A stretch of 64,000 nucleotides of DNA from Escherichia coli (lineage in GTDB: Bacteria > Pseudomonadota > Gammaproteobacteria > Enterobacterales > Enterobacteriaceae). The stretch lies in NCBI RefSeq assembly GCF_045037415.1, contig NZ_CP173438.1; one strand, 5' to 3'. Every line of letters begins with the position of its first letter. Positions within the stretch are counted from its first letter, which is position 1. Positions 53,701 through 56,018 of this stretch are shown here, in pieces. Position numbers: made by a program.

Positions 53701-56018
53701 CGATGCAAAAGCGTTCCCGATTATTCCGTGCAACCTGTGCGGTTCACAGCCTAACCTGCAACGTCAGGTAATTGCTGACATGTTGCGTGACTGGGATAAA
53801 CGTTATCCGGGGCGTATCGAGACGATGTTCAGCGCAATGCAGAATGTGGTGCCGTCGCATCTGTGCGATACCAACCTGTTCGATTTCAAAGGCATTACCC
53901 ACGGTTCTGAAGTGGTTAACGGGGGGGATCTGGCGTTTGATCGCGAAGAGATCCCACTACAACCAGCGGGCTGGCAGCCAGAAGAAGATGAAAATCAGTT
54001 GGATGAGTTACGGCTGAATGTGGTTGAAGTGAAATAACCAGGATAGCGCCCGATACGCAAGCGTATCGGGCTACTCTTATGGAAGCCGATAAGACGCGGC
54101 CAGCGTCGCATCCGGCAATGCCGAAGAAGATGTTTACTCTTGCACCCTGCAATTCAACATTTCATTATTTTAATAACCGCACCCGGCACGTTTTTCCTTT
54201 AATCTTCCCGCCCTGTAACTGTTTCCATGCTTTATGAGCAACAGCCTGACGCACCGCGACATAAACATGCGCCGGATGCACGGCAATTTTGCCAATATCT
54301 GCGCCATCAAGCCCGATGTCTCCTGTCAGCGCACCTAATACATCACCCGGGCGCATTTTGGCTTTTTTCCCGCCATCGATACACAACGTTGCCATTTCTG
54401 CTTCCAGCGGCACAATGGAACTATTCGCTGGCGGCGTTTGCCAGTTAAGTTTTATCTGCAACATGTCAGAAATGATATTGGCCCGCTGTGCTTCTTCCGG
54501 AGCACAGAAACTGATCGCCAGACCGCTATTTCCTGCACGAGCTGTACGACCGATGCGATGTACATGAACTTCAGGGTCCCACGCCAGCTCAAAGTTCACC
54601 ACCAGCTCAAGCGATTTTATATCCAGACCACGCGCAGCAACATCAGTCGCGACCAGTACACGGGCGCTACCGTTAGCAAAACGTACCAGGGTCTGATCGC
54701 GATCGCGTTGCTCCAGATCGCCGTGTAACGACAATGCACTTTGCCCTACTTCATTCAGCGCGTCGCAGACAGACTGGCAATCTTTTTTGGTATTGCAAAA
54801 CACCACGCAAGAGGATGGCTGATGCAAGCTTAATAACCGTTGCAACAGAGGAATTTTGCCTTTGCTGGATGTCTCATAAAATTGTTGTTCAATAGGTGGC
54901 AGAGCATCTGTTGAGTCAATTTCAATCGCTAAAGGATCGCGCTGCACTCTTCCGCTGATTGCGGCAATGGCTTCCGGCCAGGTTGCCGAAAACAGAAGTG
55001 TCTGCCGAGATGCTGGCGCAAAACGGATGACATCATCAATGGCGTCACTAAATCCCATATCCAGCATGCGGTCGGCCTCATCCATCACCAGCGTATTCAA
55101 CGCATCCAGTGATACAGTGCCTTTTTGCAGGTGATCCAGCAAACGGCCCGGCGTTGCCACGATAATATGCGGCGCATGTTGTAACGAATCACGCTGCATA
55201 CCGAACGGTTGACCACCGCACAACGTCAAAATTTTGGTATTTGGCAGAAAACGCGCCAGCCGACGCAATTCACCTGCCACCTGATCCGCCAGTTCACGCG
55301 TAGGACACAGCACTAAAGCCTGGGTTTGAAATAGCGACGCATCAATTTGCTGTAACAAGCCGAGGCCAAAAGCCGCCGTTTTGCCGCTGCCGGTTTTCGC
55401 CTGCACGCGAACATCTTTTCCGGCAAGGATCGCCGGAAGCGCGGCGGCCTGCACCGGCGTCATGGTTAAATAACCCAACCCATTAAGGTTTGTGAGTTGG
55501 GCGGGAGGCAAAACATTCAGGGTAGAAAAAGCGGTCACAATCTATTCTCGTGGTCATCGACGCAAAGTCAGCAGGCGCGTATCCTCGCAGATCTACGCTC
55601 ACGATGCGACAATTTAATCGGCTCTTCATCGGGTGGTGGGTCAGGCATGGGTTGCGGGCGAGGGATCGGATCGGGCACGGGAACAGGATCGCCAGGAATC
55701 GGTTCAGGGACAGGAATTTGCAAATAAATAAGTGTCGTCATATTTCCCTCCGGTCATTGGGTGGACTCTTAAAGGGTAGACGCTGATAAATAACAGGCAA
55801 AAAAAAGCCGACTCATCAAAGTCGGCGTCGTACGAATCAATTGTGCTATGCAGTAATTCAAAAAAGGAAGTAAGACAATATGGAGCGCAACGCCCATCGC
55901 TTGACGTTGCATTCACCTGCAAGAGAGATATTGCCCTGAATGGGTAGAGAGTTTATTGACTTCGCTCAAACTTTACGGCGTTTTTGTATACAGACAGCCG
56001 GGAAAATTGCTTTTGTTA

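Follow-up and report, generated by a model that had tools for sequence, protein, structure and literature searches.

The proline-rich small gene ynaL, between fnrS and dbpA, combines a peptide-selected core with a nucleotide-constrained 3′ third

We analyzed a 64,000-nt stretch of Escherichia coli DNA (contig NZ_CP173438.1, assembly GCF_045037415.1; hereafter the window), in which a short proline-rich open reading frame (ORF) had been flagged immediately upstream of the helicase gene dbpA. All main features of the locus lie on the minus strand (Table 1). Direct reading, an ORF list and a terminator scan recovered each structural element of the original prediction, namely a terminator, the GGAGGG-aaat-ATG start and a 57-codon ORF on the minus strand; the gap between the ORF's stop codon and the dbpA GTG (55538), given there as 30 nt, is 29 nt. 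Beyond reasonable doubt, the ORF is ynaL (b4743), which encodes a small protein, is translated and is conserved within the Enterobacteriaceae; the hairpin that precedes it is the terminator of the small RNA (sRNA) FnrS. Both had been catalogued before, and the finding is therefore real and already known.

A megablast of the region around the ORF against complete E. coli genomes (5,426) matched 5,392 of them at an identity of at least 95%; among the matches listed, every record gives the ORF the name ynaL and the product name "proline-rich small protein YnaL" (RefSeq accessions WP_001296046.1 and YP_009518775.1). The 701 nt queried (55400-56100) were 100% identical to strain SK1144 and two other records, and not to K-12. 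The window ORF and K-12 YnaL are nonetheless the same gene, with the same product and the same position between fnrS and dbpA, and show no difference at the protein level. In K-12 MG1655, fnrS (b4699) occupies 1409129-1409250, ynaL (b4743) 1409308-1409481 and dbpA (b1343) begins at 1409511; fnrS ends 57 nt before ynaL, and the fnrS–ynaL–dbpA spacing is identical in the window. A 57-aa sequence identical to the window product (MTTLIYLQIPVPEPIPGDPVPVPDPIPRPQPMPDPPPDEEPIKLSHRERRSARIRAC) is listed between fnrS and dbpA in Table 1 of VanOrsdel 2018 (Proteomics 18:e1700064, PMC6001520). The same study detected YnaL by immunoblot as a chromosomally sequential peptide affinity (SPA)-tagged protein that accumulates in both exponential and stationary cultures, noted that it was positive in a tetracycline ribosome-profiling screen, and suggested a possible ynaL–dbpA operon and an operon-related function (PMC6001520). 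The product also matches the Pfam family PF23677.1 (YnaL) over its entire length, with residues 1-57 aligned to model positions 1-57 (136.8 bits, independent E value 2.2e-40), and PF23677 was present in all 136 homologs that we collected. Our literature search returned no function assigned to YnaL. To our knowledge, the regulation of dbpA is itself essentially unstudied.

Table 1. Features of the fnrS–ynaL–dbpA locus, in window coordinates
Feature	Position	Strand	Basis and remarks
fnrS (FNR-activated, Hfq-dependent sRNA FnrS)	55799..55920	-	Rfam RF01796 match; 122 nt in K-12, b4699
FnrS intrinsic terminator	55799..55826	-	GCCGACTT-tgat-GAGTCGGC then T8; terminator scan and covariance model
Conserved box TCTACCCT	55773..55780	-	CTAC[CG]CT across genera (55779..55773); alignment
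ynaL Shine–Dalgarno GGAGGG	55746..55751	-	aaat (4 nt), then ATG at 55741
ynaL coding sequence (b4743), "proline-rich small protein YnaL"	55568..55741	-	57 codons plus TGA (55570..55568)
Pro-rich core D18-D38, DPVPVPDPIPRPQPMPDPPPD, with polyproline motif DPPPD	55628..55690	-	PPP at 55639..55631
Block A CCGATTAAATTGTCGCAT, codons P41-H46	55604..55621	-	TGTCGCAT part invariant, even in genera without the ORF
Block B AGA TCT GCG AGG ATA CGC GCC TGC TGA, R50-stop	55568..55594	-	nucleotide-invariant
dbpA translation initiation region	55536..55552	-	weak Shine–Dalgarno-like CACGAGAA at 55552..55545; GTG 55538..55536
dbpA, ATP-dependent 23S-rRNA-specific DEAD-box helicase, 457 aa, downstream of ynaL	54165..55538	-	ORF list, annotation

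The assignment of the hairpin to FnrS came from an Rfam search, in which RF01796 matched at 55920..55803 over all 119 model positions (1-119), scoring 134.8 bits (E 1e-25) where the gathering score is 60. The terminator corresponds to positions 96-119 of the FnrS covariance model: its stem (55826..55807; 8 bp, 5 of them G-C) aligns to positions 96-113, and its T8 run reaches 55799. The hairpin forms the 3′ end of a complete FnrS gene, upstream of which stands an FNR-like box, and FnrS is a transcription unit separate from ynaL–dbpA, which lies downstream. The FNR-like box, TTGAG-cgaa-GTCAA at 55969..55956 (minus strand), is a sequence match only; it is centered ~42 nt before the FnrS 5′ end, a position that would fit the known FNR dependence of fnrS.

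These assignments also clarify the status of C0343, which the original prediction had cited as an unvalidated sRNA of the zntB–dbpA spacer whose 3′ end might be the terminator. Its unvalidated standing and its location were given correctly; the terminator belongs to FnrS (RF01796) and not to C0343. Formerly an Rfam candidate sRNA of the ydaN(zntB)–dbpA spacer, C0343 comes from the same intergenic region as ynaL, contains an ORF, is covered by ribosomes (RCV 2.49) and has been removed from Rfam (Neuhaus 2017). The lines on C0343 in that paper attribute a 57-aa protein encoded by it to Washietl 2011. Within the ynaL region, no Rfam 15 family other than FnrS matched at E ≤ 1, and C0343 is not recognized there as an RNA family. 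By this account, C0343 is the ynaL message mislabelled as an sRNA, and not an sRNA ending at the observed terminator.

We gathered relatives of the locus from genome contigs and a protein collection, and found the order zntB–fnrS–ynaL–dbpA in 14-15 genera. With ttcA convergent after dbpA, it holds in Escherichia, Salmonella, Citrobacter, Enterobacter, Klebsiella and Raoultella, as well as Kosakonia, Leclercia, Lelliottia, Pseudocitrobacter, Superficieibacter and Pseudescherichia. FnrS stood upstream of ynaL in every locus scanned with Rfam (L002-L011), its terminator was conserved in all orthologous loci, and every ynaL ortholog carried a GGAG(G)-type Shine–Dalgarno sequence (SD) 4-8 nt before its ATG. 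No terminator was found between ynaL and dbpA, which are mostly separated by 27-30 nt from the ynaL stop to the dbpA GTG, by 14 nt in Klebsiella and Raoultella, and by ~60 nt in some lineages. In Klebsiella (L012/L013:2501-2710) and Raoultella (L016), the ynaL TGA is replaced by a sense codon (AGA or CAA) that extends the ORF by five codons. The dbpA initiation motif, [CT]GAGA-N8-9-GTGACCGCTTTT, is kept in all genera, with GUG as the start codon and a weak GAGA-type SD, and dbpA orthologs carry the Pfam domains DEAD, Helicase_C and DbpA. The YnaL family is small, with ~209 clusters at 90% identity and named members that are all Enterobacteriaceae. A protein search with DbpA for outgroups returned only core Enterobacteriaceae, at 85-95% identity.

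To compare selection along the ORF, we aligned codons from 14 genera and computed the mean pairwise synonymous (pS) and nonsynonymous (pN) values for each region. The N-terminal ~17 residues drift (pS 0.78, pN 0.55, pN/pS 0.71), and amino-acid conservation is confined to the ~20 residues before PPP. Over the Pro core (D18-E40), pS was 0.63 and pN 0.11 (pN/pS 0.18). Because its amino acids are fixed and its third positions vary freely, the core is under purifying selection at the protein level. The 3′ third of the gene behaves differently: block A (P41-H46; CCG ATT AAA [T/A]TG TCG CAT) gave pS 0.036 and pN 0.041, and block B (R50-C57; AGA TCT GCG AGG ATA CGC GCC TGC) gave pS 0.001 and pN 0.062, values at which pN/pS is not informative for either block, whereas the intervening codons 47-49 vary (pS 0.54, pN 0.49, pN/pS 0.91). 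Among conserved degenerate columns, more than one codon was used in 20 of 21 within the core, versus a synonymous variant in only 1 of 13 within blocks A and B (Fisher p = 3e-7). Within dbpA, codons vary normally from about codon 5 on. The original prediction had taken rare codons near the end of the ORF as weakening the coding hypothesis. They do not: AGA (55594-55592), AGG (55585-55583) and ATA (55582-55580), all among the last eight codons, lie in block B and are invariant in all 14 genera as part of an element conserved at the nucleotide level. ynaL is thus a composite of a drifting N-terminus, a peptide-selected Pro core (DPxPxPDPIPRPQPMPDPPPDEEPIK) and a nucleotide-constrained 3′ third.

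Among the stalling-prone proline motifs of the kind noted in the original prediction, DPPPD, a strongly elongation factor P (EF-P)-dependent motif type, proved to be conserved in most, though not all, lineages. DPPPD/PPP was kept in 111 of 121 cluster representatives, and PPP and block A are always three codons apart, without gaps. The PPP position is occupied by PSP in 3 of the 121, and these three, together with P0023, are the four representatives that lack Pro-Pro anywhere. Core length is polymorphic within E. coli through in-frame deletions of 11 and 15 codons and an 11-codon duplication (L006:2501-2641; P0001, P0088, P0112), and core duplications also occur in Salmonella and Citrobacter (polymorphic proteins including P0053 and P0101). 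Slippage between short DP(V/I)P repeats is the probable origin of such variants. We also observed frameshifted ynaL alleles that run into the +1 frame (P0003, P0007, P0041, P0106, P0110).

Could the ORF nevertheless be non-functional, either a coincidental frame in a noncoding RNA such as the old C0343 or a product of pervasive translation of FnrS read-through or of the dbpA leader? Its length alone is weak evidence of function and only mildly unusual, as 97 of 2,000 shuffles of the 260-nt spacer that preserved dinucleotides (4.9%) contained, on the same strand, an ORF that starts with ATG and is 57 or more codons long. In favor of a non-functional ORF, C0343 formerly figured as an sRNA of this spacer, and ynaL is dispensable in Kluyvera (below). 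Against this, the frame, the ATG and a strong GGAGG-type SD are kept across 14-15 genera despite near-saturated synonymous sites, the core shows the protein-level constraint just described, and indels within ynaL are multiples of three. Both the protein and ribosome occupancy have been demonstrated (PMC6001520; Neuhaus 2017), and C0343 is gone from Rfam, leaving FnrS as the only match. We accept ynaL as a real gene because of this conservation of frame, ATG and SD together with the published detection of its protein. The coincidental frame entertained in the original prediction is rejected, and a non-functional ORF in any form is scarcely credible.

We next consider what the nucleotide-level constraint on blocks A and B reflects. 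A metagenome scan with the block B 18-mer returned mostly ynaL–dbpA loci; a further ~14 matches in unrelated GC-rich contexts equal the chance expectation for an 18-mer given the size of the collection and were disregarded. The scan also recovered two Kluyvera loci (L093 and L100, the latter encoding a DbpA identical to that of Kluyvera georgiana) in which the Pro-rich ORF is absent: fnrS is followed by only ~50 nt, and then by block A, 9 nt of spacer, block B and dbpA. Three further Kluyvera species (L141, L142, L143) were fetched via their DbpA proteins and are hence unbiased with respect to block B. Across the four species, the zntB–dbpA spacer measures 333 nt, compared with 477 nt in K-12, and no ynaL was called; TGTCGCAT-N9-AGATCTGCGAGGATACGCGCCTGCTGA is preserved in full at 35 nt from the GTG, and all that remains of the frame is 14 codons, (M/L)SHxxxRSARIRAC, without an SD. 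Kluyvera is thus a natural ynaL deletion. Because its DbpA shares a 90% cluster with that of Pseudocitrobacter, whose locus has ynaL, the Kluyvera state appears to be a secondary loss.

Truncated alleles tell a similar story. In Pseudescherichia vulneris (L144:1291-1480, found via DbpA), a 49-aa YnaL ends ...EEPIKMSR* directly after block A, with block B kept untranslated downstream of the stop. In Lelliottia-like loci (L046 and ~10 similar metagenome loci), a TAG in the 9-nt spacer yields proteins of 47-50 aa, and block B is again kept. Because block B is retained past the stop in both lineages, the basic RSARIRAC tail is dispensable. The blocks persist where they are untranslated, which argues that they belong to the dbpA 5′ leader and are not a selected peptide tail: as judged from these alignments, blocks A and B constitute a noncoding leader element that the ynaL frame reads through, and block B keeps a constant spacing of ~35 nt to the dbpA GTG. 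No Rfam family covers the element at this locus and our literature search found no published description of it. The nucleotide-frozen leader element, with its persistence in ORF-less and truncated lineages, is the only new material here.

The same observations bear on the idea that the C-terminus is an arrest peptide of the SecM/TnaC type, with ...RSARIRAC-stop (compare SecM GIRAGP) stalling ribosomes near the stop codon just before dbpA. Across 14 genera the last eight residues are indeed near-invariant, and 14-30 nt separate the stop from the dbpA start. However, the invariance resides in the nucleotides, with zero synonymous change in block B, and the same DNA is kept untranslated in Kluyvera, P. 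vulneris and the Lelliottia-like loci. Where the nucleotides allow it, the C-terminus varies (AC, AI, ACRLSAF, ACRSSVL). We therefore rejected a C-terminal arrest motif, which we regard as very improbable.

Several other sources of constraint on blocks A and B were considered and set aside. No acceptable match to a sigma-70, -24, -28, -32 or -54 promoter was found within them by eye, and a consensus scan called none. An overlapping or antisense ORF, an N-terminally extended DbpA and a frameshift fusion were each rejected as the cause: the frame relation of ynaL and dbpA varies (gaps of 27, 28, 29, 30 and 14 nt), E. coli has an in-frame TAG two codons before the GTG, and an alternative-frame ATG is not conserved. 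In Klebsiella, one gene caller proposes a 477-aa DbpA starting inside block B, in a frame that is closed in E. coli. A mimic of 23S hairpin 92 for DbpA autoregulation was also set aside, a cursory comparison having shown short similarities only. Pairing of FnrS with the ynaL 3′/dbpA 5′ region was dismissed as well, its duplex energy being matched or beaten by 18% of shuffles.

Upstream of the ORF, a CTAC[CG]CT box between the FnrS terminator and ynaL is present in 14 of 14 genera, and in Kluyvera too. TTGCCT (55800..55795, minus strand), which overlaps the end of the terminator T-run, precedes it, and a spacing of 16 nt between the box and TTGC is kept in 13 of the 14 genera; spacing differs in Kluyvera and in one Citrobacter locus. 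The box is a candidate weak -10 element (TAnnnT), with TTGCCT as a possible -35, of a ynaL–dbpA promoter; a consensus promoter scan called nothing at this position. The ynaL mRNA between 55631 and 55741 is rich in C and poor in G, with up to 36 C versus 15 G in 78 nt (C/G 2.4). The composition is rut-like, and one may speculate that, with ynaL untranslated, it could subject dbpA to Rho-dependent polarity.

Turning to the product, AlphaFold predicted YnaL to be without a fold, with a predicted template modelling score (pTM) of 0.22 and no DSSP secondary structure; only the Pro core reached a high predicted local distance difference test score (pLDDT ~90), as an extended segment. The product is thus predicted to be extended and non-globular; its net charge is -6 over the acidic core and +5 over the basic tail. 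No relatives were found in the PDB or among the defence families of PADLOC, and the sequence contains no signal peptide. Homology to TonB was rejected, as the matches were of low-complexity, Pro-rich character and far below their cut-offs (20.8 bits against 315; NF008084, E 2.9e-4; PF16031, E 0.75). YnaL has PxP/PRP-type repeats in common with the TonB Pro-rich spacer and with Pro-rich antimicrobial peptides (apidaecin, oncocin, Bac7). The latter are strongly cationic, in contrast to the acidic YnaL core, and a role as such a peptide was discarded on this ground and for want of a signal peptide or of homologs in the PDB and family libraries.

A trans-acting small protein is a different matter. 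In this scenario, YnaL would bind a partner through its acidic, polyproline-II-like core, alone or together with the basic tail; the partner might be DbpA, an intermediate of 50S assembly or some other factor associated with ribosomes. Co-location with dbpA would then reflect shared function and not regulation in cis. Such a role draws on the purifying selection acting on the core as protein, on the high confidence with which the core is predicted to be extended, on the operon arrangement kept in 14-15 genera, and on the accumulation of SPA-tagged YnaL in exponential and stationary cultures, whose discoverers suggested an operon-related function (PMC6001520). Counting against it, our literature and PDB searches found no YnaL partner, phenotype or structure, and the product is predicted to lack a fold. 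In addition, ynaL is cleanly lost in Kluyvera with dbpA kept, two lineages dispense with the C-terminal tail, and in-frame core deletions and duplications of 11 to 15 codons circulate in E. coli. Taken on its own, we regard a trans role as possible but rather unlikely.

Our preferred reading is that ynaL is the promoter-proximal ORF of a ynaL–dbpA transcript and acts mainly in cis. Ribosomes would load at the strong ynaL SD and run through the leader, and their flow would be throttled at DPPPD, where EF-P is needed. A ribosome paused at PPP would abut or cover block A and could thereby alter access to the leader element and the dbpA start, such that DbpA output would track elongation or peptidyl-transfer capacity. 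The YnaL product may additionally, or instead, act in trans. DPP, PPP and PPD are the three strongest EF-P-dependent motif classes, and all three are contained within DPPPD. Support for this model comes from the retention of DPPPD in 111 of 121 representatives, from the weak and conserved dbpA initiation region, and from the location of DPPPD a constant three codons before block A, because of which a paused ribosome would abut the element. Moreover, the ~20 conserved residues upstream of PPP approximate the length of nascent chain held by the exit tunnel, conservation downstream of PPP lies in the nucleotides, and YnaL is predicted to have no fold and showed no relatives in the PDB or among defence families. 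An EF-P-sensitive leader ORF that tunes dbpA in cis is plausible, if a little short of probable.

Several observations weigh against a cis role. E. albertii (locus L003) and the C. youngae group carry DPSPD and have no Pro-Pro anywhere in the protein. In Kluyvera, dbpA appears to be expressed from this leader although ynaL is missing; a dbpA leader thus does not require the ORF. In P. vulneris and the Lelliottia-like lineages ribosomes stop before block B. The accumulation of YnaL-SPA as a protein is equally compatible with a role in trans (PMC6001520). Finally, consensus folds, z-scores and accessibility estimates disclosed no alternative mRNA structures that would tie ribosome position to the dbpA start. 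RNAalifold over three windows gave -4 to -9.5 kcal/mol with scattered pairs and no conserved structure. Pair probabilities averaged over the 14 genera peaked at 0.43 and supported only two mini-hairpins, of 4 bp in block A and 3 bp at the dbpA start. The E. coli fold of 55630..55510 was unremarkable relative to shuffles (z-score -0.73), and whole-transcript folding placed the accessibility of blocks A and B and of the dbpA initiation region at the transcript average.

Candidate helices can be drawn between UCGCA of block A and UGCGA of block B, within GCG-AGGAUA-CGC, and between GAAGAG/GUCGCA and the dbpA start; covariation is silent on them because all of their bases are invariant. By eye, block B can form GCG-AGGAUA-CGC with a GGA loop of the kind bound by CsrA.

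Cis and trans roles are not mutually exclusive, and we consider a trans role about as likely as a cis role. Taken as a whole, the account given here, comprising the identity of the gene, the layout of the locus, its composite nature and regulation in cis, is the best explanation of the data and, on balance, a probable one.

A more specific version of the cis model would make ynaL a sensor. DbpA remodels the region of the peptidyl-transferase center (hairpin 92) during 50S assembly, and ynaL could be an upstream ORF that reports peptidyl-transferase or EF-P performance to the dbpA gene. The nascent chain DPxPxPDPIPRPQPMPD would occupy the exit tunnel as the ribosome paused at PPP, directly before the leader element TGTCGCAT-N9-AGATCTGCGAGGATACGCGCC, 35 nt from the GUG, and the length of the pause would set DbpA synthesis. 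As a corollary, the Pro-rich ORF would have arisen inside, or been lost from, a pre-existing dbpA leader. We judge this sensor function improbable.

There are instructive parallels for regulation of dbpA in cis. The mgtL and mgtP ORFs of the Salmonella mgtCBR leader are Pro-codon leader ORFs that sense EF-P or Pro-tRNA, and ynaL resembles them as a short 5′-leader ORF with Pro codons, through which its translation rate would depend on EF-P or prolyl-tRNA, and at which ribosome position is proposed to set downstream expression. Unlike those leaders, which use well-defined alternative stem-loops, the ynaL region is without conserved structure, and YnaL is much longer (57 aa), is conserved as a peptide over ~25 residues and accumulates as a protein. 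SecM–secA, TnaC–tnaA and SpeFL–speF, in turn, are nascent-chain arrest leaders, which share with YnaL a conserved peptide immediately upstream of a gene, the regulated gene in their case and dbpA here. As in these leaders, conservation in YnaL falls in the stretch that would occupy the tunnel at the presumed stall (D18-P37), with a nucleotide-conserved region downstream, and by analogy the pattern of the Pro core would fit ribosome arrest. In contrast to them, the apparent C-terminal motif of YnaL is an RNA or DNA element, and some lineages lack the stall motif.

Other small features of the window deserve brief mention. Both K-12 and SK1144 carry an annotation, ynaN (b4773, "protein YnaN"), for a 15-codon ORF at 57013-57060 (minus strand) that ends 13 nt ahead of the zntB start; like ynaL, it is a small ORF upstream of a gene in this row. 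Additional Rfam sRNAs comprise MicC (48723-48843, minus strand), McaS (62787-62882, plus strand), RydC (19770-19833, plus strand) and the sok antitoxin RNA (19059-19210, plus strand). MicC lies only ~4.3 kb beyond ttcA, which in K-12 presumably adjoins the Rac prophage; given this distance, the strain probably lacks Rac at the ttcA site.

The main value of this analysis is the demonstration that a real small gene is recognizable from sequence alone. In addition, the naturally ORF-less (Kluyvera) and truncated (Pseudescherichia and Lelliottia-like) variants complement the picture of a peptide-selected core joined to a frozen leader element. If the cis link proves false, YnaL would join the many small proteins that are conserved but have no known role. 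If it holds, polyproline translation, and with it EF-P status, would feed back on a ribosome-assembly helicase, providing a new example of translational-capacity sensing.

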